Position numbers and translations under genes: made by a program
Origin: Escherichia coli
GTDB taxonomy: Bacteria; Pseudomonadota; Gammaproteobacteria; Enterobacterales; Enterobacteriaceae
DNA length: 64,000 nt
Strand: one strand, 5' to 3'
Assembly: GCF_044647545.1 (NCBI RefSeq)
Contig: NZ_CP172818.1
The notes under the pieces: model-generated
The model's input: only the letters and a program-made list of their open reading frames with translations
What the model was told of the DNA's origin: nothing
Database searches by the model: none
Shown: positions 529-57,832 of the stretch, piece by piece
Numbering within the stretch: position 1 is the first letter of the stretch
Layout of the letters: each line of letters begins with the position of its first letter

Positions 529-1824
<1,296 letters not shown>

Positions 1825-1970
1825 AACTGTCAGCCGGGTCATTATCGCCTGGCTGATTTTTAGCTCACTGTAAATTATCTCATTTATTACATACATTAGC
1901 TTACAATCGCTTTAAATATGACAGCATAACCTTTACACAATTTAGTTCCAGAAAACAATCATTCGGAAAA

Positions 1971-3446
1971 ATGATTCGGTCAACACGTATTTCCCTGGGG
2001 TTATTCTTTAATTATTTTTTATCGTCAACGAAAATTGATCCTGGTCAAAACTATATATCTCTGCCATCAATAAAATCCAGCACTCACATTGCTCTCCTTT
2101 TTATGGCTTCTATGGGTACACAAAAATTAAAAGCTCAAGGCTTTTTTATTTTCAGCTTATTGCTGACGTTAATTTTATTTTGCATTACTACCTTATATAA
2201 CGAAAACACAAATGTAAAACTCATCCCACAGATGAATTACCTGATGGTTGTTGTGGCTTTGTTTTTCCTTAACGCCGTCATTTTTCTTTTCATGTTAATG
2301 AAGTATTTCACTAACAAACAAATTTTACCAACACTCATTTTAAGTCTTGCATTTTTAAGTGGCCTTATCTATTTAGTTGAAACCATTGTAATTATCCATA
2401 AACCAATCAACGGCAGTACACTGATCCAGACAAAGTCGAATGATGTTTCTATTTTCTATATTTTCCGCCAACTCAGTTTCATTTGTTTAACCTCGCTGGC
2501 GCTCTTTTGTTATGGGAAAGACAACATCCTTGACAACAATAAGAAAAAAACTGGCATTCTGTTGCTGGCGCTGATTCCTTTTTTAGTTTTTCCCCTTCTG
2601 GCACACAATCTGAGTAGTTATAACGCTGACTATTCTTTGTATGTCGTCGATTACTGTCCGGACAACCATACTGCGACCTGGGGAATCAACTATACAAAAA
2701 TATTGGTTTGTTTGTGGGCATTTTTACTGTTCTTTATTATCATGCGTACACGATTAGCCAGCGAACTATGGCCGTTAATAGCATTATTATGTCTGGCATC
2801 GCTATGCTGCAACTTACTTCTACTGACTCTGGATGAGTATAATTACACCGTCTGGTATATCAGTCGCGGGATTGAAGTTTCCAGTAAACTGTTTGTTGTG
2901 TCTTTTCTGATTTATAACATTTTTCAGGAACTGCAACTCTCCAGCAAACTGGCAGTTCATGATGTACTGACCAATATTTATAATCGGCGCTACTTTTTCA
3001 ACAGCGTAGAGTCATTATTGTCGCGACCTGTTGTTAAGGACTTTTGTGTCATGCTGGTTGATATTAATCAGTTCAAACGCATCAATGCCCAATGGGGACA
3101 TCGTGTGGGTGATAAAGTGCTGGTATCAATTGTCGATATTATCCAGCAAAGCATCCGCCCCGATGATATTTTAGCGCGACTGGAGGGTGAGGTGTTTGGC
3201 TTGCTATTTACCGAACTCAATAGTGCCCAGGCAAAAATCATTGCGGAACGTATGCGTAAAAATGTCGAACTCCTGACCGGCTTTAGTAACAGATATGATG
3301 TTCCTGAACAAATGACCATCAGTATTGGCACGGTTTTTTCAACGGGTGACACGCATAATATCTCGCTTGTCATGACGGAAGCAGATAAAGCCTTACGCGA
3401 AGCGAAAAGCGAGGGGGGCAACAAAGTGATTATTCATCATATTTAA
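1971..3446 (+). CDS. dgcI: Membrane GGDEF-domain protein with degenerate active site (EGEVF)
   Basis: 491-aa ORF with multi-TM N-terminus and C-terminal GGDEF fold; motif reads RLEGEVFGL instead of GGDEF; gene is strongly AT-rich. Confidence 0.85.
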   Translation: MIRSTRISLGLFFNYFLSSTKIDPGQNYISLPSIKSSTHIALLFMASMGTQKLKAQGFFIFSLLLTLILFCITTLYNENTNVKLIPQMNYLMVVVALFFLNAVIFLFMLMKYFTNKQILPTLILSLAFLSGLIYLVETIVIIHKPINGSTLIQTKSNDVSIFYIFRQLSFICLTSLALFCYGKDNILDNNKKKTGILLLALIPFLVFPLLAHNLSSYNADYSLYVVDYCPDNHTATWGINYTKILVCLWAFLLFFIIMRTRLASELWPLIALLCLASLCCNLLLLTLDEYNYTVWYISRGIEVSSKLFVVSFLIYNIFQELQLSSKLAVHDVLTNIYNRRYFFNSVESLLSRPVVKDFCVMLVDINQFKRINAQWGHRVGDKVLVSIVDIIQQSIRPDDILARLEGEVFGLLFTELNSAQAKIIAERMRKNVELLTGFSNRYDVPEQMTISIGTVFSTGDTHNISLVMTEADKALREAKSEGGNKVIIHHI

Positions 3447-3626
3447 GTGCAAAAATATTCAGAGCCATGCTTTTTGCGTGGCTTTTGCATACAATTTATT
3501 ACTATTACCCCTAAATTTCCCCTCCCCAGCGGCGCAGAGATGAGTATAATTAGCGCCCCTGTGCCAGGCCGCAATCGAACTTTATCTGGTTTTCTCGTTT
3601 CACTAACCGAAGGAGTGCCATTTATC

Positions 3627-5117
3627 ATGAAATTGCACCATAGAATGCTCCGGCATTTTATCGCCGCAAGTGTCATTGTGCTGACATCTTCCTTCCTTAT
3701 TTTTGAACTTGTCGCCAGTGACAGAGCAATGAGTGCCTATCTGCGCTATATCGTGCAGAGAGCAGACTCCTCCTTTCTTTATGATAAGTATCAGAATCAG
3801 AGTATTGCCGCGCATGTGATGCGCGCGCTCGCTGCTGAGCAGTCGGAAGTGTCGCCAGAACAGCGGCGCGCCATCTGCGAGGCTTTTGAGTCTGCCAATA
3901 ATACCCATGGCTTAAACCTGACTGCCCATAAATACCCTGGCTTACGCGGCACACTACAAACCGCATCCACTGACTGCGACACAATTGTGGAAGCTGCTGC
4001 ACTATTACCCGCTTTTGATCAGGCAGTGGAAGGCAACCGCCACCAGGATGATTACGGTTCAGGTCTTGGGATGGCCGAAGAGAAATTTCACTATTATCTC
4101 GATCTCAATGACCGCTATGTCTATTTTTATGAGCCGGTTAATGTTGAGTACTTTGCGATGAATAACTGGTCCTTCCTGCAGTCAGGAAGTATTGGCATCG
4201 ATCGCAAAGATATTGAAAAGGTATTTACCGGGCGTACCGTATTATCGAGCATTTACCAGGATCAGCGTACTAAACAGAACGTGATGAGTTTGCTGACGCC
4301 GGTATATGTCGCAGGGCAGCTAAAAGGGATTGTGCTGCTGGATATTAACAAAAACAATCTGCGGAATATCTTTTACACTCATGACCGCCCTCTCCTCTGG
4401 CGTTTTCTCAATGTCACGCTAACTGATACAGATTCGGGGCGCGACATTATCATCAACCAGAGCGAAGATAATCTGTTCCAGTATGTCAGTTACGTCCATG
4501 ACTTACCGGGCGGCATTCGTGTCTCGTTATCCATTGATATTCTTTACTTTATCACGTCTTCGTGGAAAAGCGTTCTGTTCTGGATTTTGACGGCGTTAAT
4601 TTTGCTGAATATGGTGCGGATGCACTTCCGTTTATACCAAAATGTGTCGCGAGAAAATATTAGTGATGCGATGACTGGACTCTATAATCGCAAAATTTTA
4701 ACCCCTGAACTGGAGCAGCGGTTGCAGAAGCTGGTGCAATCCGGTTCTTCGGTGATGTTTATTGCAATTGACATGGACAAGTTAAAGCAAATAAATGACA
4801 CCCTTGGTCATCAGGAGGGGGATTTAGCGATTACGTTATTAGCGCAGGCGATTAAACAGTCGATTCGTAAAAGTGATTATGCCATCCGACTCGGTGGCGA
4901 TGAATTCTGCATCATTCTTGTCGATTCGACACCGCAAATTGCAGCACAACTGCCTGAACGTATCGAAAAACGTCTGCAACATATCGCGCCGCAGAAAGAG
5001 ATCGGCTTCTCTTCCGGTATTTACGCGATGAAAGAAAACGATACGTTACATGATGCGTATAAAGCTTCCGATGAGCGTTTATATGTCAATAAGCAGAACA
5101 AAAACAGCCGTTCATGA
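3627..5117 (+). CDS. dgcJ: Membrane diguanylate cyclase (intact GGDEF)
   Basis: ATG at 3627 preceded by AGGAG gives 496 aa; motif RLGGDEFCI present; ORF track start 3447 is an upstream in-frame extension. Confidence 0.85.
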   Translation: MKLHHRMLRHFIAASVIVLTSSFLIFELVASDRAMSAYLRYIVQRADSSFLYDKYQNQSIAAHVMRALAAEQSEVSPEQRRAICEAFESANNTHGLNLTAHKYPGLRGTLQTASTDCDTIVEAAALLPAFDQAVEGNRHQDDYGSGLGMAEEKFHYYLDLNDRYVYFYEPVNVEYFAMNNWSFLQSGSIGIDRKDIEKVFTGRTVLSSIYQDQRTKQNVMSLLTPVYVAGQLKGIVLLDINKNNLRNIFYTHDRPLLWRFLNVTLTDTDSGRDIIINQSEDNLFQYVSYVHDLPGGIRVSLSIDILYFITSSWKSVLFWILTALILLNMVRMHFRLYQNVSRENISDAMTGLYNRKILTPELEQRLQKLVQSGSSVMFIAIDMDKLKQINDTLGHQEGDLAITLLAQAIKQSIRKSDYAIRLGGDEFCIILVDSTPQIAAQLPERIEKRLQHIAPQKEIGFSSGIYAMKENDTLHDAYKASDERLYVNKQNKNSRS

Positions 5118-5159
5118 TAACCTTCTGTAGTTGTTTGCTTGTAATCTCAGGAGCATGAA

Positions 5160-5663
5160 ATGACTGAAATGGCTAAAGGAAGCGTGACGCATCAGCGGTT
5201 AATCGCTTTATTATCGCAAGAAGGTGCTAACTTCCGCGTCGTTACCCATGAAGCGGTAGGTAAATGTGAAGCGGTGTCAGAAATTCGTGGCACCGCTTTA
5301 GGCCAGGGGGCTAAGGCACTGGTATGTAAAGTCAAAGGCAATGGCGTAAATCAACATGTTCTGGCGATCCTCGCGGCCGATCAACAGGCCGATCTGAGCC
5401 AACTTGCCAGCCATATAGGCGGATTACGCGCTTCGTTGGCCAGCCCGGCGGAAGTCGATGAACTCACAGGCTGTGTCTTCGGCGCGATCCCCCCTTTCAG
5501 CTTCCATCCAAAACTCAAACTGGTTGCCGACCCCCTACTCTTCGAACGATTTGATGAAATCGCCTTCAATGCAGGCATGCTGGATAAATCCGTTATTTTG
5601 AAAACCGCGGATTATTTGCGCATTGCGCAACCAGAACTGGTCAATTTCCGCCGCACTGCGTAA
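5160..5663 (+). CDS. yeaK: YbaK/ProX-family aminoacyl-tRNA deacylase YeaK
   Basis: 167-aa ORF with GGAG upstream; conserved position after dgcJ. Confidence 0.85.
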   Translation: MTEMAKGSVTHQRLIALLSQEGANFRVVTHEAVGKCEAVSEIRGTALGQGAKALVCKVKGNGVNQHVLAILAADQQADLSQLASHIGGLRASLASPAEVDELTGCVFGAIPPFSFHPKLKLVADPLLFERFDEIAFNAGMLDKSVILKTADYLRIAQPELVNFRRTA

Positions 5664-5768
5664 CTAGCCTGTCCGTTCGATAAGAAGAACGGACAAAACC
5701 AGCACAACAGCAATGGCAAAAAACGATGACGTGATAATCAGTGTCTCGACGAACATTTGATCGTTCAT
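5664..5768 (-). CDS. yoaI: Small membrane protein YoaI (34 aa)
   Basis: Minus-strand ORF read by hand: [34 protein letters not shown]; below the ORF-track size cut-off. Confidence 0.6.
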
Positions 5769-5937
5769 AGTATGCCCCCGGGAGATAGCTGTTTTCACGT
5801 TATTGTTAACGTGCACAAATGGCAGTTTGATGACAGTTCGCCTGATTTTTTATGCAAAAAACGTAAAGATTTTCTACTTCCTTCCTGCAGCAAGCGTAAA
5901 GTAAGCAGGCTTATTATTCTTTGGCAAGGAAACCACG

Positions 5938-6384
5938 ATGTTTGATGTCACTTTGCTGATCCTGCTCGGGTTAGCTGCGCTGGGCTTTATCAGTCATAAC
6001 ACCACTGTCGCCGTTTCAATTCTGGTGTTAATCATTGTCCGCGTCACACCGTTAAGCACCTTTTTCCCGTGGATTGAAAAACAGGGGCTAAGTATCGGGA
6101 TAATCATTCTGACGATTGGTGTTATGGCTCCCATCGCCAGCGGGACGCTACCGCCCTCAACCCTGATTCACTCGTTTCTGAACTGGAAATCGCTGGTGGC
6201 AATTGCAGTCGGCGTTATTGTCTCCTGGCTGGGAGGGCGCGGCGTGACGTTAATGGGCAGCCAGCCGCAACTGGTCGCCGGGTTGCTGGTGGGCACTGTT
6301 TTAGGCGTGGCGCTGTTTCGCGGCGTACCGGTTGGCCCGCTTATTGCCGCGGGTCTGGTTTCGCTGATTGTGGGGAAACAGTAG
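5938..6384 (+). CDS. yeaL: UPF0756 inner-membrane protein YeaL
   Basis: 148-aa hydrophobic ORF; 3' end overlaps the convergent nimR. Confidence 0.85.
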
Positions 6385-7162
6385 TTAATCCCGCAATATA
6401 TCGGCCTGGCGTTTGCCCCAGGCCTTTCTTAAACATAGTAATAAAGGCCGTTGTTGAATCATACCCCAGCGTATGAGCAACTTTCTGTACAGTATCGCCT
6501 TTCACTAATCCCTGAAGCGCCATAATCAGCTGTAACTGCTGACGCCACTGGCGAAAACTCAACCCCGTCTCTTTCACTATCAGCCGGGCAAGATTGCGTT
6601 CACTCATCGCAAAAAAGCGAGCCCATTGCCCCAATGACCCCCACTCGACGGGCTCTTTCGCCATCATCTCCACCATCGCGCGGATTTTAGGATGAGAAGA
6701 AACGGGTAGGTGCAGCTGTTGTTGTGGCTGCTGAGGGAGTTCATCAAACAGGACCTGAATTAATCTGCGGGTCATCGGCTCAGCACGCTGAGTCGTCGTC
6801 CTGTTTGCCAGGGTTAAAATTAATTCCCGGCATAAGGGCGATATTTTCAATGTGCAACAGGTTGTCGGCATTGTCACTGCGCTGGGTTCGATAAACAGAA
6901 AACAGAGTTCGGCGTTAGCTGTCACTTGATTGCTATGTTCCACCCCTCCCGGTATCCAAACCGCATATTGCGGCGGCACCATCCACAAAGCATTTTCCAC
7001 CGTACAGGTAATTGCACCATGTAGCGCCAGTATCAGCTGTCCTTTGCGGTGCTGATGTACAGGACTGGTTAACTCATCCGTTCCGGCGTGAATACAAAAT
7101 GCGACCGCGGCTTCATGGTGTCGGTCGGGTTCATAGCCATTGAGATTCAACCTGTGCATCAT
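6341..7162 (-). CDS. nimR: AraC-family transcriptional regulator NimR (YeaM)
   Basis: 273-aa ORF with cupin-like N-terminus and AraC-type HTH C-terminus; divergent from the MFS gene nimT. Confidence 0.85.
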
Positions 7163-7258
7163 TTTGTCCGAATTTAGCGATAATTTGTCATTTTAGCTTG
7201 ATTCAACATAACACTAAAAACGGTAAGGTACAGCCTCGTTTGTAACAATGAGAAGCAT

Positions 7259-8440
7259 ATGACCTGTTCAACTTCATTAAGCGGCAAAAACAGGATTGTC
7301 CTTATCGCTGGTATTCTGATGATTGCCACAACATTACGCGTCACCTTTACCGGCGCAGCACCGTTACTGGATACGATTCGTTCCGCTTACTCGCTGACGA
7401 CGGCGCAAACCGGCTTATTGACCACCCTGCCATTATTAGCCTTTGCGCTAATCTCACCGCTGGCCGCCCCGGTGGCGCGACGTTTTGGTATGGAACGTAG
7501 CCTGTTTGCCGCGTTACTTTTGATCTGTGCAGGTATCGCAATTCGCTCTCTCCCTTCGCCTTACTTATTATTTGGCGGTACAGCGGTCATTGGCGGTGGG
7601 ATTGCATTAGGCAATGTCTTACTGCCAGGATTAATTAAACGCGATTTCCCTCATTCCGTCGCCAGACTTACCGGCGCATATTCCCTGACAATGGGAGCTG
7701 CGGCGGCACTGGGATCGGCTATGGTAGTGCCGCTGGCTTTGAACGGTTTTGGCTGGCGAGGCGCGTTGCTCATGCTGATGTGTTTTCCTCTGCTGGCTCT
7801 TTTTTTATGGCTGCCACAGTGGCGAAGCCAACAACATGCAAATTTGAGTACTTCACGCGCCTTACATACTCGGGGTATCTGGCGTTCGCCGCTTGCCTGG
7901 CAGGTAACATTGTTTCTTGGGATCAACTCACTGGTCTATTACGTGATTATTGGCTGGCTTCCGGCGATCCTCATCAGTCACGGCTATAGCGAAGCACAGG
8001 CGGGTTCACTGCATGGTTTGCTGCAACTAGCCACAGCAGCTCCCGGTTTGCTGATCCCACTTTTCTTACACCATGTGAAAGATCAGCGTGGTATTGCAGC
8101 GTTCGTTGCCTTGATGTGCGCAGTGGGCGCGGTTGGGCTCTGCTTTATGCCAGCGCACGCGATCACCTGGACTCTGCTTTTCGGCTTTGGTTCCGGCGCA
8201 ACAATGATACTGGGGTTGACGTTCATTGGTCTGCGGGCAAGTTCTGCGCATCAGGCGGCGGCACTCTCGGGGATGGCACAATCCGTCGGGTATTTGCTGG
8301 CAGCCTGTGGGCCGCCGCTGATGGGTAAAATACACGATGCTAACGGTGACTGGTCCGTACCACTGATGGGTGTTGCAATACTTTCACTACTGATGGCGAT
8401 TTTCGGACTTTGCGCCGGGAGAGACAAAGAAATTCGCTAA
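7259..8440 (+). CDS. nimT: MFS transporter NimT (YeaN)
   Basis: 393-aa, roughly 12-TM hydrophobic ORF; divergent from nimR. Confidence 0.85.
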   Translation: MTCSTSLSGKNRIVLIAGILMIATTLRVTFTGAAPLLDTIRSAYSLTTAQTGLLTTLPLLAFALISPLAAPVARRFGMERSLFAALLLICAGIAIRSLPSPYLLFGGTAVIGGGIALGNVLLPGLIKRDFPHSVARLTGAYSLTMGAAAALGSAMVVPLALNGFGWRGALLMLMCFPLLALFLWLPQWRSQQHANLSTSRALHTRGIWRSPLAWQVTLFLGINSLVYYVIIGWLPAILISHGYSEAQAGSLHGLLQLATAAPGLLIPLFLHHVKDQRGIAAFVALMCAVGAVGLCFMPAHAITWTLLFGFGSGATMILGLTFIGLRASSAHQAAALSGMAQSVGYLLAACGPPLMGKIHDANGDWSVPLMGVAILSLLMAIFGLCAGRDKEIR

Positions 8441-8494
8441 TATCCGGTGCTATAGTGACGTGACAAATCATGCGTGAAAGGGAGAACAAACACG

Positions 8495-8842
8495 ATGAAT
8501 ATTCAGTGCAAACGCGTTTATGATCCGGCTGAACAGAGCGATGGTTATCGCGTACTGGTCGACCGCCTCTGGCCGCGCGGTATCAAAAAAACCGATTTAG
8601 CCCTTGATGAGTGGGATAAAGAAATCACGCCGTCAACGGAACTGCGCAAAGCCTTTCACGGCGAAGTCGTCGATTTTGCAACCTTTCGCGAGCAATATCT
8701 TGCAGAACTGGCGCAACACGAGCAAGAAGGAAAGCGGCTGGCGAACATCGCCAAAAAACAGCCGCTGACCCTGCTCTACTCAGCAAAAAACACCACGCAG
8801 AACCATGCGCTGGTGCTGGCAGACTGGCTACGTAGCTTGTGA
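8495..8842 (+). CDS. yeaO: DUF488 protein YeaO
   Basis: ATG at 8495 after GGGAGA SD gives 115 aa; ORF track start 8474 is an upstream extension. Confidence 0.8.
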   Translation: MNIQCKRVYDPAEQSDGYRVLVDRLWPRGIKKTDLALDEWDKEITPSTELRKAFHGEVVDFATFREQYLAELAQHEQEGKRLANIAKKQPLTLLYSAKNTTQNHALVLADWLRSL

Positions 8843-8863
8843 TTTTAGTACGCCATCCGGCGG

Positions 8864-9118
8864 TTATTTTTCACCAGCCGGATGGTCCCGTCGCCACAAT
8901 GCCCATTCATCAATCGTTTCACCGCCCGGTAATTTGCAATTGTTGCTGACCCCTTGCGCTGTCTGCACTGGAATGAGCGTCCCGCCCTTCTGCTGGCAAT
9001 AGACCGACGCCGGATTTGCCATACCAATCTGTGGCGGTTTAGGTGCTTCTGGCTGAGAAGGGGTTGAACAACCAGCCAGGACCAGCAAGCAAGGCAGAAC
9101 AAAACTGATAATTTTCAT
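8864..9118 (-). CDS. yoaF: DUF333 lipoprotein YoaF
   Basis: 84-aa ORF with lipoprotein signal (LVLAGCSTP lipobox). Confidence 0.8.
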   Translation of the reverse strand: MKIISFVLPCLLVLAGCSTPSQPEAPKPPQIGMANPASVYCQQKGGTLIPVQTAQGVSNNCKLPGGETIDEWALWRRDHPAGEK

Positions 9119-9300
9119 TTATTGATCTCACATATTTATCCAGACTTAGAGTATCGCGGTATCGTTTTGTTTTGCAGCACTATTTTTATTACATTCACTC
9201 AAAACATATTACGCCTTGTTTCATCTTTGTTGATGATGTTTTATCATGCCTGCAAAGATTAAATAATCAGCATTTACCCGCCGTATCCTGGAGTTGTTTC

Positions 9301-10326
9301 GTGTCAGATCAGATTATCGCCCGCGTCTCGCAATCCCTTGCCAAAGAACAGTCACTGGAAAGTCTGGTTCGACAGCTTCTGGAGATGCTGGAAATGGTCA
9401 CTGATATGGAATCAACCTACCTGACCAAAGTGGATGTCGAAGCGCGCCTGCAGCATATAATGTTTGCCCGTAACAGCCAGAAAATGCACATCCCGGAGAA
9501 TTTTACCGTCTCGTGGGATTACTCGTTATGCAAACGCGCCATTGATGAAAACTGCTTTTTCAGCGATGAAGTCCCCGACCGTTGGGGCGACTGTATTGCG
9601 GCACGCAATCTTGGCATCACCACATTTCTGAGCACGCCAATTCACTTACCGGATGGATCATTCTATGGCACGCTTTGCGCCGCCAGCAGTGAGAAGCGCC
9701 AGTGGAGTGAACGCGCGGAACAGGTTTTGCAGTTATTCGCCGGACTGATTGCACAATATATTCAAAAAGAGGCGCTGGTAGAACAGCTGCGCGAAGCCAA
9801 TGCCGCACTGATAGCGCAATCGTATACCGACTCGTTAACCGGGCTACCGAATCGGCGGGCGATTTTTGAAAATCTGACGACGCTGTTTTCTCTCGCCCGG
9901 CATCTTAACCATAAGATAATGATCGCGTTTATCGACCTGGATAACTTCAAATTAATCAACGATCGTTTTGGTCATAATAGTGGCGATCTGTTTCTCATTC
10001 AGGTTGGCGAGCGCCTTAATACGCTCCAGCAAAATGGCGAAGTTATTGGTCGTCTCGGCGGTGATGAGTTTTTGGTTGTTTCACTGAACAACGAGAATAC
10101 GGATATTTCGTCGCTGCGAGAACGTATTCAACAGCAAATACGTGGAGAATATCACTTAGGTGATGTTGATTTGTATTATCCCGGTGCCAGTCTTGGCATA
10201 GTAGAAGTCGATCCTGAAACGACCGATGCAGACAGTGCCCTGCATGCTGCCGATATCGCGATGTATCAGGAGAAAAAACACAAACAGAAAACACCTTTTG
10301 TCGCGCATCCAGCGCTACATTCCTGA
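9301..10326 (+). CDS. dgcP: GAF-GGDEF diguanylate cyclase
   Basis: GTG at 9301 after GGAG gives 341 aa; intact GRLGGDEFLVV motif. Confidence 0.85.
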   Translation: MSDQIIARVSQSLAKEQSLESLVRQLLEMLEMVTDMESTYLTKVDVEARLQHIMFARNSQKMHIPENFTVSWDYSLCKRAIDENCFFSDEVPDRWGDCIAARNLGITTFLSTPIHLPDGSFYGTLCAASSEKRQWSERAEQVLQLFAGLIAQYIQKEALVEQLREANAALIAQSYTDSLTGLPNRRAIFENLTTLFSLARHLNHKIMIAFIDLDNFKLINDRFGHNSGDLFLIQVGERLNTLQQNGEVIGRLGGDEFLVVSLNNENTDISSLRERIQQQIRGEYHLGDVDLYYPGASLGIVEVDPETTDADSALHAADIAMYQEKKHKQKTPFVAHPALHS

Positions 10327-14826: not shown

Positions 14827-16386
14827 ATGACTCATATAGCAATGTTAAAAAAAAAGATGGCTAAAAATTTTTTTTTTAACTTTTCCCCAAAAAAACCCAA
14901 AAATTTTGTTACGCGTACGTTAGGTTCCGCCGTACAGGTATTGGTTTTGCTGGCAATGGGACTGGTGATTTATTTAGCCACCAGTAAATACGGCAATATT
15001 CGTCTTGGCGAAGGAAAACCGGAATACAGCACGCTCTCCTGGCTGTTTATGTTTATTTGTGCCGGTTTAGGTTCTTCTACGCTTTATTGGGGGGTTGCTG
15101 AATGGGCCTATTATTATCAAACCCCTGGATTAAATATCGCACCGCGTTCACAACAGGCACTCGAATTTAGCGTCCCTTACTCCTTCTTCCACTGGGGCAT
15201 CAGCGCCTGGGCAACTTATACGCTGGCCTCATTAATCATGGCTTATCACTTTCATGTGCGGAAAAATAAGGGGCTGAGCCTTTCCGGCATTATTGCTGCT
15301 ATTACCGGCGTTCGCCCGCAAGGCCCATGGGGAAAACTGGTCGATTTGATGTTCCTGATCGCCACTGTCGGCGCACTGACCATTTCCCTTGTTGTCACCG
15401 CAGCAACCTTTACCCGTGGGCTTTCCGCGCTGACCGGTTTACCCGATAATTTCACCGTGCAGGCATTTGTGATCCTGCTTTCCGGCGGCATTTTTTGCCT
15501 AAGCTCGTGGATTGGTATCAACAACGGTTTGCAACGTCTGAGCAAAATGGTTGGCTGGGGCGCGTTCCTGCTGCCATTACTGGTGCTCATTGTCGGCCCA
15601 ACCGAATTTATTACCAACAGCATCATCAATGCCATCGGCCTGACCACGCAAAACTTCCTGCAAATGAGCTTATTCACCGATCCGCTTGGCGATGGTTCAT
15701 TTACCCGCAACTGGACCGTTTTCTACTGGCTGTGGTGGATCTCATACACCCCTGGCGTAGCAATGTTTGTCACCCGCGTTTCCCGCGGTCGTAAGATTAA
15801 AGAAGTTATCTGGGGACTGATCCTCGGCAGCACCGTCGGTTGCTGGTTCTTCTTCGGCGTAATGGAAAGCTATGCCATTCACCAGTTTATCAATGGCGTA
15901 ATCAACGTCCCACAGGTGCTGGAAACACTGGGCGGCGAGACAGCTGTGCAGCAAGTTCTGATGTCGTTGCCAGCCGGTAAATTGTTCCTCGCCGCATACC
16001 TGGGCGTGATGATTATTTTCCTTGCCTCGCATATGGATGCAGTGGCCTACACCATGGCGGCAACCAGTACGCGTAATCTCCAGGAAGGTGACGATCCTGA
16101 CCGTGGGCTGCGTCTTTTCTGGTGCGTGGTAATTACCTTGATCCCGCTTTCAATTCTTTTCACTGGCGCGTCGCTGGAAACGATGAAAACCACCGTCGTA
16201 CTCACAGCCCTTCCGTTCCTCGTCATTTTACTGGTGAAAGTCGGCGGATTTATTCGCTGGCTGAAACAGGATTACGCCGACATTCCGGCTCATCAAGTTG
16301 AACATTATCTCCCGCAGACACCGGTTGAAGCCCTGGAAAAAACACCAGTGCTCCCTGCGGGAACCGTATTCAAAGGCGACAACTGA
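14827..16386 (+). CDS. yeaV: BCCT-family transporter YeaV (start uncertain; TTG at 14941 would give the 481 aa remembered for K-12)
   Basis: Long multi-TM ORF; first 38 codons cover homopolymer tracts and look like leader rather than coding sequence. Confidence 0.8.
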
Positions 16387-19766: not shown

Positions 19767-19795
19767 TCAAAAAAAACGCCGGATTAACCGGCGTC
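19767..19795 (-). terminator. Rho-independent terminator after fadD
   Basis: Minus strand reads ACGCCGGTTAATCCGGCGT followed by T8. Confidence 0.6.
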
Positions 19796-19813
19796 TGACG
19801 ACTGACTTAACGC

Positions 19814-21499
19814 TCAGGCTTTATTGTCCACTTTGCCGCGCGCTTCGTCACGTAATTCTCGTCGCAAAATTTTTCCGACGTTAGATTTCGGTAACTCATC
19901 ACGAAACTCCACCAGCTTCGGTACTTTGTAGCCCGTGAGCTGACGGCGGCAAAAGGTCACCAGTGACTCTTCGGTAAGCGATGGATCTTTTTTCACTACG
20001 AAGATTTTCACCGCTTCACCACTGGAGCCGGAAGGTACGCCAACAGCCGCGACTTCCTGTACGCCAGGATGCTGCATGACGACATCTTCAATCTCGTTGG
20101 GATAGACGTTAAAACCGGAAACCAGAATCATGTCTTTTTTACGATCGACAATGCGCAGGAATCCTTCTTCATCCATCACCGCGATGTCGCCGGTGTGTAA
20201 CCAGCCATTTTTGATGATTTCATCGGTAGCATCCGGACGCTGCCAGTAACCCAGCATCACCTGCGGTCCTTTGACACAAAGCTCACCTGGTTGACCCGGT
20301 GGTACTTCGTTGTCGTCGTCATCCACCAGTTTGGCTTCCGTCGACGGCACCGGCAAACCGATGCTACCACTATGATAATCAATATCATACGGGTTAACGC
20401 TGACCAGCGGCGCACACTCGGTCAGGCCATAACCTTCCAGCAGATACTGTCCAGTCAGTTTCACCCAACGTTCTGCCACCACTTGCTGAACAGGCATCCC
20501 TCCGCCTGCGGAAAGATGCAGACTGGAGAAATCCAGCTGCTGGAACTCTTTATTGTTCAGCAACGCATTGAACAAGGTGTTAACGCCAGTGATAGCGGTA
20601 AACGGATATTTCGCTAACTCTTTTACCAACCCTGGAATATCGCGCGGGTTAGTGATAAGCAGGTTCTGCCCACCCAGTTCGATAAACAGCAGGCAGTTAA
20701 TGGTCAGGGCAAAAATGTGATACAGCGGCAGCGCCGTCACCACCAGCTCTTTGCCCGGATGCAACAGCGGACCATAGGTCGCGTTAACCTGTTCCAGGTT
20801 CGCCAGCATATTGCGGTGAGTCAGCATCGCGCCTTTCGCCACACCAGTGGTACCGCCGGTGTATTGCAGGAAAGCTAAATCTTCCGGCACCAGTTCGGGT
20901 TTGACGTACTGCATCCGGTAGCCGCTGTGCAGGGCGCTACGAAATGAAATGGCATCTGGCAGATGGTATTTCGGCACCAGACGCTTGATGTATTTAACAA
21001 CGAAATTGACTACCGTGCCTTTTGCCGTAGATAGCTGATCGCCCATACGGGTCAGAATTACGTGCTGAACGGCGGTTTTATCAACCACTTTTTCCAGAGT
21101 GTGGGCAAAGTTAGACACGATAACAATCGCCGATGCGCCGCTATCGTTAAGCTGATGCTCAAGTTCACGCGGGGTATACAACGGGTTAACGTTTACGACA
21201 ATCATCCCGGCACGCAAAATGCCAAACAGCGCCACCGGATATTGCAATAAATTAGGCATCATCAACGCAACGCGATCGCCTTTCTTCAGTCCCAACCCTT
21301 GTTGCAAATAAGCGGCAAACGCGCGACTGCGTTCTTCCAGTTTGCGGAAGGTCATCACCTCCCCCATATTCACAAACGCGGGTTGATCGGCGTAGCGCGC
21401 GACCGACTGCTCAAACATATCTACCAGAGATTGATAACGGTCAGGGTTGATCTCCGTCGGAACGTCCGCGGGATAACGGTTAAGCCAAACCTTCTTCAA
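19814..21499 (-). CDS. fadD: Long-chain fatty acyl-CoA synthetase
   Basis: AMP-binding signature ([15 protein letters not shown]); 561 aa from a non-ATG start (LKKVWLNRY...); ORF track Met at 21565 is upstream of it. Confidence 0.9.
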
Positions 21500-30048: not shown

Positions 30049-30161
30049 TACTTTATCCTCGCCCATCTGCAACCCCGCTTTCTCGTCTGCTGTAATATTC
30101 CCCACTACACTTCCACTGTTGCGTCAGGCGTTTGTCGCCATACGCTTACAGGGTGGCCCGC

Positions 30162-31760
30162 ATGCAAAAAGCACAACGGATCATTAAAACCTATCGCCGT
30201 AATCGAATGATTGTTTGTACGATTTGCGCACTCGTTACGCTCGCTTCGACCCTGAGCGTGCGATTTATTTCACAGCGTAACTTAAATCAACAACGGGTAG
30301 TACAATTCGCCAATCACGCTGTAGAGGAATTAGATAAAGTACTGCTTCCCCTACAGGCAGGTAGCGAAGTCTTGCTTCCGCTGATTGGTCTGCCCTGCTC
30401 TGTCGCCCATTTGCCATTACGTAAACAGGCGGCAAAACTCCAAACTGTGCGATCCATTGGCCTGGTGCAAGACGGCACACTTTATTGCTCCAGCATTTTT
30501 GGTTATCGCAATGTGCCCGTCGTGGACATTCTGGCTGAACTTCCTGCACCGCAACCACTTTTACGCCTGACGATCGACCGTGCCCTGATTAAAGGCAGTC
30601 CGGTTTTGATTCAGTGGACGCCAGCAGCGGGCAGTAGCAAAGCTGGGGTCATGGAGATGATTAACATCGACTTACTGGCGGCAATGCTGCTTGAGCCACA
30701 ACTGCCGCAAATCAGTAGCGCCAGCCTGACGGTGGACAATCGGCATTTGCTCTATGGTAATGGGCTGGTAGATTCCCTTCCGCAACCTGAAAACAATGAA
30801 AACTACCAGGTTTCTTCGCAACGCTTTCCTTTTACCATTAACGTTAATGGTCCGGGGGCTACGGCGCTGGCATGGCACTATCTTCCAACACAATTACCGC
30901 TGGCGGTGCTGCTAAGTTTACTGGTGGGCTACATCGCCTGGCTGGCGACCGCTTACCGGATGAGCTTTTCCCGCGAAATCAATCTGGGCCTGGCGCAACA
31001 TGAGTTCGAATTGTTCTGTCAGCCTTTGCTTAATGCGCGCAGCCAGCAATGTATTGGTGTAGAGATTTTGCTTCGCTGGAACAATCCGCGTCAGGGCTGG
31101 ATTTCACCGGATGTGTTTATTCCTATCGCGGAAGAACATCATTTAATTGTGCCACTGACCCGCTATGTGATGGCAGAAACCATCCGTCAGCGGCATGTTT
31201 TCCCAATGAGTAGTCAGTTTCATGTTGGCATTAACGTCGCACCCAGCCATTTTCGCCGTGGTGTGCTGATAAAAGATCTCAATCAGTACTGGTTTAGCGC
31301 TCACCCGATTCAGCAACTGATCCTCGAAATCACCGAACGCGATGCCTTACTGGATGTTGATTATCGGATTGCCCGCGAGCTGCATCGTAAAAACGTCAAA
31401 CTGGCGATTGATGACTTCGGCACCGGCAACAGTTCGTTTTCCTGGCTTGAAACATTACGTCCTGACGTGCTGAAAATTGATAAGTCATTTACCGCAGCTA
31501 TAGGTTCTGACGCGGTTAACTCGACGGTGACCGATATCATCATCGCTCTGGGGCAAAGACTGAATATTGAACTGGTGGCGGAGGGTGTGGAAACACAAGA
31601 ACAGGCGAAGTATTTGCGCCGTCATGGGGTGCATATTTTGCAAGGGTATTTGTACGCACAGCCGATGCCGCTACGTGATTTTCCCAAATGGCTGGCGGGC
31701 AGCCAACCGCCGCCCGCCCGGCATAATGGACATATCACGCCCGTTATGCCGTTACGTTAA
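30162..31760 (+). CDS. pdeD: CSS-motif EAL-domain c-di-GMP phosphodiesterase
   Basis: 532 aa from internal Met; periplasmic loop carries Cys and a CSS motif (TLYCSSIFGY); C-terminal EAL-type domain. Confidence 0.85.
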   Translation: MQKAQRIIKTYRRNRMIVCTICALVTLASTLSVRFISQRNLNQQRVVQFANHAVEELDKVLLPLQAGSEVLLPLIGLPCSVAHLPLRKQAAKLQTVRSIGLVQDGTLYCSSIFGYRNVPVVDILAELPAPQPLLRLTIDRALIKGSPVLIQWTPAAGSSKAGVMEMINIDLLAAMLLEPQLPQISSASLTVDNRHLLYGNGLVDSLPQPENNENYQVSSQRFPFTINVNGPGATALAWHYLPTQLPLAVLLSLLVGYIAWLATAYRMSFSREINLGLAQHEFELFCQPLLNARSQQCIGVEILLRWNNPRQGWISPDVFIPIAEEHHLIVPLTRYVMAETIRQRHVFPMSSQFHVGINVAPSHFRRGVLIKDLNQYWFSAHPIQQLILEITERDALLDVDYRIARELHRKNVKLAIDDFGTGNSSFSWLETLRPDVLKIDKSFTAAIGSDAVNSTVTDIIIALGQRLNIELVAEGVETQEQAKYLRRHGVHILQGYLYAQPMPLRDFPKWLAGSQPPPARHNGHITPVMPLR

Positions 31761-36535: not shown

Positions 36536-36994
36536 ATGACAATCACGGACCTGGTACTGATTCTTTTCATCGCCGCACTCCTGGCCTTCGCGATCTACGA
36601 TCAGTTCATCATGCCCCGCCGTAACGGCCCCACTCTGCTGGCAATTCCTTTGCTCCGGCGTGGTCGCATCGATAGCGTTATCTTCGTCGGATTGATTGTC
36701 ATTCTTATCTATAACAACGTCACGAATCATGGCGCGCTAATAACAACATGGTTATTAAGTGCACTGGCTCTGATGGGTTTTTATATATTCTGGATCCGCG
36801 TTCCGAAGATCATCTTTAAACAAAAAGGTTTTTTCTTCGCCAATGTCTGGATTGAATATAGCCGAATCAAAGCGATGAACTTGTCGGAAGATGGCGTGTT
36901 GGTGATGCAATTAGAACAGCGTCGGCTGTTAATCCGCGTTCGAAATATCGACGATCTGGAAAAAATTTATAAGCTTCTCGTTTCAACTCAATAG
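36536..36994 (+). CDS. yobD: UPF0266 membrane protein YobD
   Basis: 152-aa ORF with TM helices. Confidence 0.85.
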
Positions 36995-37194
36995 GTTATG
37001 AATTTAGCCAAAGCTATGTTTAGTGTATTTTTAATAATCAGACATAGCTTAGGCTATATTACCTCTTCCCTTATTTGTTATTTATTTTAACGTTTCATTG
37101 ATATATAAATCTAAATGAAAATCGTTATCAATAAAGCAATGAAATAATATATTCCAACAGTTGTTTTATATTCTCAAAATATGTTAAGGTTGCG

Positions 37195-37330
37195 CCCTCA
37201 TTTGGGGAGTAGCCGATTTCCAGATTCCGGAAATGTACGTGTCAACATACTCGTTGCAAAACGTGGCACGTACGGACTGAACACTTTCAGTCAGGCGAGA
37301 CCATATGCACATCAATCGCTATGCCTGCAT
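37195..37330 (+). promoter_or_regulatory. yybP-ykoY-type Mn(2+) riboswitch in the mntP leader (approximate bounds)
   Basis: Long structured leader with conserved-looking blocks TTGGGGAGTAGCCG (37201-37214) and CAGGCGAGACC (37291-37301) about 120-220 nt upstream of the mntP ATG. Confidence 0.5.
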
Positions 37331-38796: not shown

Positions 38797-38889
38797 GACA
38801 ACTCCGGCAGGATACTAAAGGCCGCAAGTGTAACGCGAATCACGCGGCGGGCAAATATCCGAACGCCTGGAGCGAAGATAAAGCAAAGT

Positions 38890-38916
38890 AAAAAGCCTCG
38901 CATTCGGCGAGGCTTT
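38890..38916 (-). terminator. Rho-independent terminator after cspC
   Basis: Minus strand reads GCCTCGCCGAATGCGAGGC followed by a T run. Confidence 0.6.
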
Positions 38917-38961
38917 ATAGCGAGATTGAAGCGTATTCACACTTCAGATCAGTGGATTCGA

Positions 38962-39171
38962 TCAGATAGCTGTTACGTTAACAGCTGCCGGACCTTTCTG
39001 GCCGTCCTGAATTTCGAACTCAACGTTCTGACCTTCAGCCAGAGTTTTGAAGCCATTACCCTGGATAGCGGAGAAGTGTACGAACACGTCTTTGCTGCCA
39101 TCAGCCGGAGTAATGAAGCCAAAACCTTTAGACTCGTTGAACCACTTAACCTGACCTTTAATCTTTGCCAT
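38962..39171 (-). CDS. cspC: Cold-shock-domain protein CspC
   Basis: 69-aa [23 protein letters not shown]... with RNP1/RNP2 motifs. Confidence 0.95.
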
Positions 39172-39183
39172 TTGAAAAATTCC

Positions 39184-39327
39184 TTAGATTGTTTTCTTCG
39201 CCCGCAGGCATAACATAGATAAAACTGACACATTACTGCATGAGGCACCAATATAAGGCTCGGCAGAGAAGCGGTATTCAACGTCAACGTGTTTACTCAG
39301 GACTTCTTTACTGAAAATGCCACACAT
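39184..39327 (-). CDS. yobF: Small protein YobF (47 aa), co-oriented just upstream of cspC
   Basis: Hand-translated: [47 protein letters not shown]. Confidence 0.65.
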
Positions 39328-39996
39328 AAACAGAACTGTACCTCGTTTAACCCGAAATCTGTTATCACATACAACGTTAATTATGGCAAGCCATTTTTAA
39401 ACATGTCTCGATCAGACGCACAAATCTCGATACGTCTTCCACTTTTTTTGCACACTTATGCAACGGAATACGCGCCGATATATCATTGTGCTTAACCTTG
39501 CCAGTTCAGGCAGATACTTAAACTGACGTATTTTCTAACATAGTTCAATAAGTTCAGTTGTTCCAGGCCAGTGGGAGAAGTTATTACATAGTGCGTGCAA
39601 TATCACATTTTCTGCTATGCAATGAATAAAAAGTTATATCACTTTTTCTCATAAAACAGTCAGTTAACGGCCACCAATTACCCCAAAGAGAAGTCAATCC
39701 CCAATGGTATTGTAAATTTAAAATAAGAAAAATTGATGAATGCGCAAAAAAATCAAGAGAGAAACGTTTCGCTAATAAATAATACCATGCTTAATCACAA
39801 ATCCGATGTAAACATCCTAATAAATTAATGGGCTAAATATCTTTTTCTGATATCCCGTTACGCAAATAAATAATATGATAATTATTTGAAGTCAGACCAG
39901 AGTTTTAATTTGAAGCAGTTGCACCATGACAGTGCGTATAATCAGGATGAATTGAGTAACCCTTCAACGACGGGGTTACTCAAGATTGAGGAAGGA

Positions 39997-54799: not shown

Positions 54800-55072
54800 A
54801 TAAAGTCAGCGAAGGGAATGCTTCTGGCTTTTAACAGATAAAAAGAGACCGAACACGATTCCTGTATTCGGTCCAGGGAAATGGCTCTTGGGAGAGAGCC
54901 GTGCGCTAAAAGTTGGCATTAATGCAGGCTTAGTTGCCTTGCCCTTTAAGAATAGATGACGACGCCAGGTTTTCCAGTTTGCGTGCAAAATGGTCAATAA
55001 AAAGCGCGGTGGTCATCAGCTTAAATGTTAAAAACCGCCCGTTCTGGTGAAAGAACTGAGGCGGTTTTTTTA
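54800..55072 (+). ncRNA. ryeA: sRNA RyeA (SraC), antisense to SdsR (5' end not determined)
   Basis: Plus-strand terminator at about 55032-55072 (CCGCC...GGCGG then T7) downstream of the SdsR locus, consistent with the known cis-antisense arrangement. Confidence 0.35.
54840..54942 (-). ncRNA. sdsR: sRNA SdsR (RyeB)
   Basis: Minus strand reads GCAAGGCAACTAAGCCTGCATTAATGCCAACTTTTAGCGCACGGCTCTCTCCCAAGAGCCATTTCCCTGGACCGAATACAGGAATCGTGTTCGGTCTCTTTTT, matching the remembered SdsR sequence including terminator hairpin and U-tail; boundaries within a few nt. Confidence 0.65.
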
Positions 55073-57175: not shown

Positions 57176-57832
57176 ATGTCGTTCTGGAAAGTTGCAGCAG
57201 CGCAATATGAGCCTCGTAAAACCTCACTCACCGAACAGGTAGCTCATCATCTGGAGTTTGTGAGGGCCGCCGCCAGGCAACAATGTCAGCTGTTAGTTTT
57301 TCCATCGCTTTCTTTACTGGGGTGTGATTATTCGCGACGTGCCCTTCCTGCCCCACCCGATCTCTCGCTATTAGACCCGCTGTGTTAAGCTGCAACGACC
57401 TGGCGAATGACTATCATTGCCGGTCTTCCCGTTGAATATAACGATCGCTTTATTCGTGGAATTGCGGTGTTCGCACCGTGGCGAAAAACGCCAGGGATCT
57501 ACCATCAGAGTCATGGTGCATGTCTGGGCCGTCGTTCCAGAACCATCACGGTGGTCGATGAACAACCGGAAGGTATGGATATGGACCCGACCTGTTCACT
57601 GTTTACGACAGGGCAATGTCTGGGAGAACCCGACCTGCTGGCTTCGGCCCGTCGCTTACAATTTTTTTCACATCAGTACTCGATTGCTGTGCTGATGGCA
57701 AATGCCCGTGGTAACAGTGCACTATGGGATGAACATGGTCGTCTCATCGTTCGCGCCGATCGTGGTTCATTATTGTTAGTCGGTCAGCGTTCATCACAGG
57801 GTTGGCAAGGCGATATCATTCCATTACGCTAG
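57176..57832 (+). pseudogene. yobB: C-N hydrolase-family gene yobB interrupted by an in-frame TAA at 57386-57388
   Basis: ORFs 57176..57388 and 57407..57832 share one frame; the span is exactly 219 codons, matching the 218-aa length remembered for K-12 YobB; a single stop (..LLDPLC*AATTWRMTIIAG..) breaks it. Confidence 0.55.

Follow-up and report, generated by a model that had tools for sequence, protein, structure and literature searches.

The window analyzed here is a 64-kb stretch of the Escherichia coli chromosome that spans yeaG to purT and carries, within 32 kb, four genes related to cyclic di-GMP (c-di-GMP). Our subject is the first of them, cdgI (yeaI), together with the DNA just upstream of it. 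All four open reading frames (ORFs) lie at exactly the coordinates claimed for them in an earlier reading of this DNA (the original prediction), and their Pfam domains agree with it. In window positions, the features are as follows:

1829 to 1857, plus strand: terminator-like hairpin with a T-run just 3′ of the yeaH stop codon, which sets the yeaGH transcript apart from cdgI
1971 to 3446, plus strand: cdgI (yeaI), 491 amino acids (aa) as annotated; MASE4 membrane domain and degenerate GGDEF domain (Pfam)
3627 to 5117, plus strand: dgcJ (yeaJ), 496 aa; GAPES1 periplasmic sensor and intact GGDEF domain (Pfam); NCBIfam DgcJ equivalog, 747 bits
9301 to 10326, plus strand: dgcP (yeaP), 341 aa; GAF and intact GGDEF domains (Pfam)
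30162 to 31760, plus strand: pdeD (yoaD), 532 aa; CSS-motif periplasmic domain and EAL phosphodiesterase domain (Pfam)

The first gene had been called dgcI, which is a misnomer: RefSeq lists it as cdgI (yeaI), and DgcI is the name of YliF, which is encoded elsewhere (PMC5635695). Positions 1500 to 5300 are 100% identical to strain FDAARGOS_497 and have matches in 5,424 of 5,426 complete E. coli genomes; gene order in the FDAARGOS_497 RefSeq record is yeaG, yeaH, cdgI, dgcJ, yeaK, followed at a distance by dgcP and then pdeD. The hairpin is kept in every Escherichia upstream alignment, and cdgI itself is found at ≥95% identity in 5,418 of the 5,426 genomes (99.9%). If the 29 GGDEF/EAL genes of E. 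coli were scattered at random, four of them in 32 kb would have a Poisson probability of ~6e-5 per window, with ~0.008 such windows expected genome-wide; the four-gene cluster is a fixed, well-known feature of the E. coli map.

We favor, with a probability of about 0.8, the reading that cdgI, a core gene of Escherichia, encodes a MASE4-GGDEF protein of the inner membrane that no longer has cyclase activity, has kept its RxxD motif and serves as a c-di-GMP receptor or scaffold, and that the gene is an old, AT-rich insertion under H-NS. From sequence we read the identity of the gene, its domains and motif states, its composition and distribution, and the selection on it; c-di-GMP binding, H-NS and FNR occupancy and the absence of expression come from published papers; the loss of catalysis, the direction of evolutionary change and the horizontal origin are what we infer from these. 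Within cdgI, the elements that bear on activity are the following:

2232 to 2927, plus strand: MASE4 integral-membrane sensor domain (aa 88-319; Pfam PF17158, E = 2.8e-48), the most AT-rich coding part
2952 to 3425, plus strand: degenerate GGDEF domain (aa 328-485; Pfam PF00990, E = 9e-45, full-length match)
3156 to 3167, plus strand: inhibitory site (I-site) RPDD, an RxxD motif (aa 396-399), five residues upstream of the active site (A-site)
3183 to 3197, plus strand: degenerate A-site, with EGEVF for GG(D/E)EF (aa 405-409, within RLEGEVFGL, aa 403-411)

The motifs previously read from the three GGDEF genes (RLEGEVFGL in the first, RLGGDEFCI in DgcJ and RLGGDEFLV in DgcP) are all exact. We aligned CdgI to solved GGEEF-type domains (3ign and 6zxm) and 20 homologues and found that it is degenerate beyond the A-site, with the I-site kept. 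EGEVF substitutes both the first Gly and the catalytic Glu; four more cyclase positions are also changed (DID to DIN, IND to INA, ALY to ALR and GRN to GGN), at which the solved GGEEF proteins and the intact homologues have DID, IND (VND in 3ign), ALY and GRN. None of the 21 homologues aligned departs from the RxxD motif. Across Escherichia-type orthologs the A-site reads EGEVF, EGEEF, DGEVF, EGDVF, EGNVF or EGKRF: it is decayed in each, and the GRN Arg and the ALY Tyr are lost in all. The ratio of nonsynonymous to synonymous substitution rates (dN/dS) is 0.06 to 0.12 in both domains of cdgI (0.07 to 0.12 for GGDEF across Escherichia) at dS up to ~1, compared with ~0.012 for flanking yeaH and ~0.03 for dgcJ. 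This is the pattern of a domain in which catalysis would have been given up but which is still in use; the combination of a decayed A-site, a constant I-site and low dN/dS weighs against an active enzyme as well as a pseudogene.

Because cyclase chemistry appears lost while RxxD is retained, CdgI is best regarded as a receptor or scaffold, not an enzyme. The original prediction had proposed just this, and EGEVF, the four further changes and the intact RPDD bear it out as far as sequence can; binding itself is in the literature. In earlier descriptions of YeaI/CdgI, the A-site is degenerate and the I-site intact (Richter 2014, PMC4287979; Sarenko 2017, PMC5635695). The purified CdgI GGDEF domain bound c-di-GMP (Fig. 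S4), and it contacted several other GGDEF domains (PMC5635695). CdgI was toxic if overproduced (PMC5635695).

It is improbable, in our judgment, that CdgI is still a working diguanylate cyclase, perhaps a weak or conditional one, whose phenotypes arise from c-di-GMP synthesis. Several reports do point that way and count against the receptor reading: heterologous WspR rescued the biofilm defect of a yeaI deletion in CFT073 in no-salt lysogeny broth, and Spurbeck 2012 placed YeaI among “verified” diguanylate cyclases (PMC3484386); YeaI is also said in PMC6824119, citing Sanchez-Torres 2011, to raise c-di-GMP in BW25113. Some guanine- and metal-binding residues are left in CdgI as well (the first Asp of DIN, the Lys and Asn of FKRIN, and the GD motif). 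Both statements of activity lean on Sanchez-Torres 2011. Against a working cyclase, WspR failed to complement the yeaI deletion in glycerol medium (PMC3484386). Sarenko 2017 classed CdgI as degenerate and showed binding, not synthesis (PMC5635695). Besides the replacement of the first Gly and the catalytic Glu and the loss of the GRN Arg and ALY Tyr, A-site residues 3 (E/D/N/K) and 4 (V/E/R) vary freely among Escherichia species in an otherwise conserved domain, which is not expected of a site still used in catalysis. In a text search of the literature, the motif string EGEVF was found only in unrelated papers.

Nor does cdgI look like a decaying pseudogene retained by chance, a reading that we hold to be very improbable and have rejected because of low dN/dS and prevalence. 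It could appeal to the finding that CdgI is not detectable in standard culture (PMC5635695), to truncated variants in protein databases (P0013, P0018 and P0024), and to the deletion of cdgI in Shigella flexneri 2457T (PMC11327459). Against these stand the dN/dS values for both domains, a full-length copy at ≥95% identity in 5,408 of the 5,426 complete genomes, and published phenotypes of cdgI deletions or insertions in motility and biofilm formation.

To see how the gene is distributed, we searched 80 loci around yeaH, from species-representative genomes, for CdgI and DgcJ. The yeaH-cdgI pair is present in all Escherichia representatives (E. coli, sp. E1V33, E. whittamii, E. albertii and SCPM-O-B-8794), with dgcJ next after cdgI wherever the contig reaches far enough. 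In 11 Citrobacter-type loci, yeaH is followed by dgcJ without a MASE4 gene, the gap being ~150 nucleotides (nt) or filled with unrelated ORFs; at E ≤ 1e-5, no remnants of a MASE4 gene were found in the yeaH-dgcJ gaps of these other Citrobacter. No locus of any other Enterobacteriaceae genus sampled has the gene at the junction; in Enterobacter, where an ortholog of cdgI or dgcJ occurs in none of the loci, yeaK directly follows yeaH in most of them. The junction after yeaH (loci L013 to L087) is a variable slot, occupied by dgcJ alone, by cdgI and dgcJ, by yeaK directly or by unrelated ORFs, among them a minus-strand ORF of 256 aa seen in several Citrobacter, with different ones in Kluyvera and Klebsiella.

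Citrobacter sp. Awk 4 (P0023) and a metagenomic relative (P0020) have a MASE4-GGDEF gene, 58 to 62% identical along its full length, in the X position of yeaH-X-dgcJ-yeaK; Citrobacter sp. NCU1 (P0025), compared at the protein level, has a protein that is just as similar, with its motifs intact. These three proteins keep GGEEF, ALY and GRN where CdgI has EGEVF, ALR and GGN, and are presumably active cyclases. The P0023 and P0020 loci resemble cdgI in their low guanine-plus-cytosine (GC) fraction (0.37 to 0.38), in an upstream FNR box and in a −10 element; they differ in that the FNR box is a perfect match to consensus. Within Escherichia, dS of cdgI is about that of flanking yeaH and dgcJ, and since it equals that of its neighbors, the gene was present before the genus split.

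Our proposal is that the ancestor would have been an active MASE4-GGEEF cyclase inserted between yeaH and dgcJ, the active form of which may still occupy that position in a few Citrobacter. Loss of the catalytic site would fall at the base of Escherichia; from then on the A-site residues would have drifted and the remainder of CdgI would have stayed under purifying selection, leaving a protein that may act as a c-di-GMP-binding receptor or scaffold rather than as an enzyme.

The base composition of cdgI is unusual. Its GC of 0.387 is the minimum among the 50 window genes of ≥100 aa (0.510 ± 0.031; z = −4.0), and its GC at third codon positions (GC3), 0.427, is the most extreme of any window gene relative to the 0.532 expected from its amino acids at window synonymous usage (z = −5). 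The 5′ part is the most AT-rich: GC is 0.324 over positions 2001 to 2500 and 0.371 in the MASE4-coding segment, and the longest run in the 64 kb with less than 36% GC is 1751 to 2600. Asn, Phe, Ile, Leu and Tyr are overrepresented in the protein. The gene had been described as AT-rich, with Phe, Ile, Leu, Asn and Lys abundant in its product, and that description holds for GC, GC3 and the first four residues; Lys is only slightly enriched. The comparison of GC and codon adaptation that had been suggested along with it gives a divided answer: GC and GC3 stand out, but the codon adaptation index (CAI), computed with Sharp-Li weights, does not discriminate (0.240, fourth lowest of the 50 and ~1 standard deviation under the mean). 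Low GC (0.37 to 0.39) and low GC3 (0.42 to 0.45) are common to all orthologs checked, degenerate or intact.

Could cdgI instead be an old vertical gene, its low GC due to a hydrophobic membrane protein and weak expression, that was lost repeatedly elsewhere? We think this unlikely, although several of our own results weigh against a foreign origin. The amino acid sequence alone predicts a GC of 0.429 against the window mean of 0.51, so that about two-thirds of the GC deficit is due to amino acid composition; the CAI is unremarkable; and dS against other Escherichia equals that of the flanking genes. The conserved position in the Citrobacter lineage would fit vertical descent with repeated loss, and the Citrobacter divergence of cdgI is like that of dgcJ (dN of 0.31 versus 0.26). 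On the other side are the GC3 deficit, the lack of cdgI between yeaH and dgcJ in the 11 other Citrobacter-type loci and in the other genera sampled, with unrelated ORFs filling the gap, and the company that its relatives keep. A DgcX-like gene (P0034; ~40% identity to CdgI) lies at the end of a lambdoid prophage in E. coli, with a GC of 0.29, and a relative lies on a plasmid-like Citrobacter contig, with a GC of 0.30; dgcX has been reported to hitch-hike on prophages (Richter 2014, PMC4287979). Further, PMC3661553 Table 1 has yeaI as foreign by two published methods and links a “promoter island” inside it with foreign DNA, naming GIST, Nakamura et al., and Lawrence and Ochman. Taken together, the evidence favors the view that an AT-rich, mobile cyclase gene entered a variable junction long ago, with catalysis probably lost on the Escherichia stem. 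Old horizontal acquisition, as originally proposed, is thus supported by patchy distribution, AT-rich mobile paralogs and published predictions of foreign genes; it is not proven.

Silencing by H-NS had also been predicted, and here occupancy and derepression diverge. To place published positions we inferred a mapping from the sequence of the FNR site described below (U00096.2 position minus 1866438). On this scale, a 304-bp “promoter island” in yeaI at K-12 position 1868534 (~window 2096 to 2399) was bound by H-NS in all studies (PMC3661553 Table 1), and an extended anaerobic H-NS region at 1867616 to 1870436 (~window 1178 to 3998) holds the whole of cdgI (Myers 2013 Table S3). Occupancy over the entire gene in published chromatin immunoprecipitation (ChIP) data is consistent with silencing, but the published tables examined gave no sign of derepression in an hns mutant: yeaI is missing from the genes unmasked in the hns/stpA mutant (Myers 2013 Table S11), a point against silencing. 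A scan for σ70 consensus sequences found no promoter-like excess in cdgI (11 in 12 kb versus 16.8 expected), and the published yeaI “promoter island” was not reproduced by this crude scan.

Other regulators have been connected to the gene. CdgI is repressed by CsrA (PMC5635695), RstA binds at yeaI (PMC6824119), SrsR activates yeaI and has a peak at ~window 1928 in systematic evolution of ligands by exponential enrichment (SELEX), and AppY has a ChIP summit at ~window 2815 (K-12 1871229) with 34-fold induction. These data fit a tightly silenced cdgI that is expressed under specific conditions. A σ70 peak “within yeaI” (1869297, ~window 2815 to 2860) increased 26-fold anaerobically, and the AppY summit maps nearby on the coordinates used here. 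A simple scan places two minus-strand promoter-like sites near the same interval (2863 to 2836 and 3001 to 2973); this interval, at the MASE4/GGDEF boundary, may hold an intragenic or antisense promoter.

The upstream part of the gene suggests a second revision of its annotation. Its features, with the assignments that we propose, are as follows:

1971 to 2111, plus strand: first 47 annotated codons, probably not coding but a promoter with a 5′ leader, judged by the ratio of nonsynonymous to synonymous differences per site (pN/pS) and by broken frames
2035 to 2048, plus strand: FNR-type box TTGATCCTGGTCAA, a 9/10 match to TTGAT-N4-ATCAA
2071 to 2076, plus strand: −10-like hexamer TAAAAT (TAGAAT in E. 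albertii and Citrobacter), within an invariant block
2112 to 3446, plus strand: conserved core ORF of 444 aa, beginning at ATG 2112 (Met48)

As judged by substitutions and reading frames, the first 44 to 47 annotated codons evolve like noncoding DNA. Over the first 44 (positions 1971 to 2102), pN/pS is 0.84 to 1.12, versus 0.06 to 0.12 in the cdgI core; between the window and K-12, the first codons carry four nonsynonymous and no synonymous changes. The upstream frame is closed by stops or indels in E. albertii, SCPM and E69, and the annotated ATG is TTG in E. whittamii. ATG 2112 is the sole in-frame start codon common to all Escherichia and Citrobacter orthologs and is probably the real start of cdgI.

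Phylogenetic footprinting of nine upstream regions, including those of Citrobacter-type orthologs, left only three invariant blocks: TTGATC....TCAA (2035 to 2048), CAT(C/T)AATA(A/G)AAT, and ATG 2112. The FNR box is unchanged in seven Escherichia lineages and is a 10/10 match, with different spacers, in Citrobacter-type orthologs. FNR-like boxes in the window number 6 versus 3.1 expected, which is not significant alone, so the box carries weight only because of its conservation and published ChIP data: a sequence identical to it is the FNR-bound site “within yeaI” (Myers 2013 Tables S5/S6; binding in Tables S5 to S7), and the FNR ChIP peak at yeaI rises in an hns/stpA mutant (Myers 2013). The distance from the box center to the −10 hexamer is 29.5 nt and would fit class II geometry, with the box near −41.5, which predicts a transcription start near 2083; an anaerobic σ70 ChIP-seq peak at 1868507 corresponds, by the above mapping, to ~window 2069 (Myers 2013). 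That the FNR site is a promoter element and that translation begins at Met48 seem not to have been drawn earlier from the Myers 2013 data. Citrobacter-type loci have, in addition, another short palindromic sequence, TTGATAATCAA, lying ~130 nt upstream of the FNR box (L003, 6791 to 6801; L005, 6786 to 6796), of which no equivalent was found in Escherichia.

A fuller account can be built on these observations, to which we give slightly less than an even chance. The true start would lie ~141 nt downstream of the annotated one; from Citrobacter to Escherichia, the gene would have kept a class II FNR promoter; and cdgI would encode a 444-aa receptor linked to anaerobiosis, made only when FNR activation meets relief from H-NS and CsrA (for example, through AppY), after a single conversion from enzyme to receptor at the base of Escherichia. 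Against it, yeaI expression showed no oxygen- or FNR-dependent change in glucose minimal medium (Myers 2013 Table S9).

As for the other c-di-GMP genes, DgcJ has its GGDEF A-site at 4893 to 4907 and an I-site, RKSD, at 4866 to 4877; the A-site of DgcP is at 10057 to 10071, and DgcP lacks an RxxD I-site (QQNGE at 10027 to 10041). The two intact cyclases should consequently differ in product inhibition. PdeD has a CSS motif and an EIL(LR) EAL motif.

Elsewhere in the window, the 5′ end of yeaV (BCCT transporter) at 14836 to 14904 is replaced, relative to FDAARGOS_497 (the closest strain, whose record is nearly identical to the window in other respects), by a low-complexity stretch of A, T and C runs, shorter by 58 nt and without the ATG, which looks like either an assembly or sequencing artifact or a real disruption. 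Relative to the reference record, there is a 17-nt deletion (CGGATGGGCGAATTTAT) at 30073, between sdaA and pdeD, and yobB (57176 to 57832) has substitutions at 57382 and 57388, one of which makes an in-frame stop at codon 70, so that yobB is interrupted in the window. An Mn2+ (yybP-ykoY) riboswitch upstream of mntP (37196 to 37292) scores 41.9 bits versus the Rfam gathering score of 45 and is missed by default; the AT-rich yobD-mntP spacer (36801 to 37300) is another “promoter island” (PMC3661553). At the gathering threshold, Rfam gave no match in 1 to 12 kb. Known RNAs are sroD (19770 to 19855), the cspA-type thermoregulator leader at cspE (38887 to 39347), and the overlapping SraC/RyeA and SdsR/RyeB pair (54836 to 54980).

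The observation behind this work is real and its interpretation supported, yet each inference on cdgI is already in print. The gene is catalogued as the sole stand-alone degenerate GGDEF protein of E. coli, and reports of c-di-GMP binding, of H-NS occupancy and of a predicted foreign origin have been published for it; in this respect the finding changes little. What is added is a natural enzyme/receptor pair at a single locus (Citrobacter GGEEF versus Escherichia EGxxF), usable to test what CdgI has lost and retained; a reference start codon that is probably wrong, which touches constructs, tagged alleles and topology models based on the 491-aa form; and a hint that anaerobiosis, through FNR, belongs to the “still-unknown conditions” of CdgI production.

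K-12 CdgI/YeaI (b1785) is the same gene, with motifs and genomic context identical to those of the window; the proteins differ at 8 of 491 aa, four of these in the first 19 codons, and in nothing substantial. CdgI, DgcT (YcdT) and DgcX have been named as sharing an N-terminal domain (Richter 2014, PMC4287979). DgcT and DgcX, active MASE4-GGDEF cyclases of E. coli, share the CdgI architecture and RxxD but, unlike CdgI, have intact GGEEF, ALY and GRN. PopA of Caulobacter is a degenerate-GGDEF c-di-GMP receptor that binds through its I-site. Such receptors resemble CdgI in having a catalytically dead GGDEF domain that keeps RxxD to sense c-di-GMP; they differ in having receiver input domains, in place of MASE4, and are not orthologous to it.

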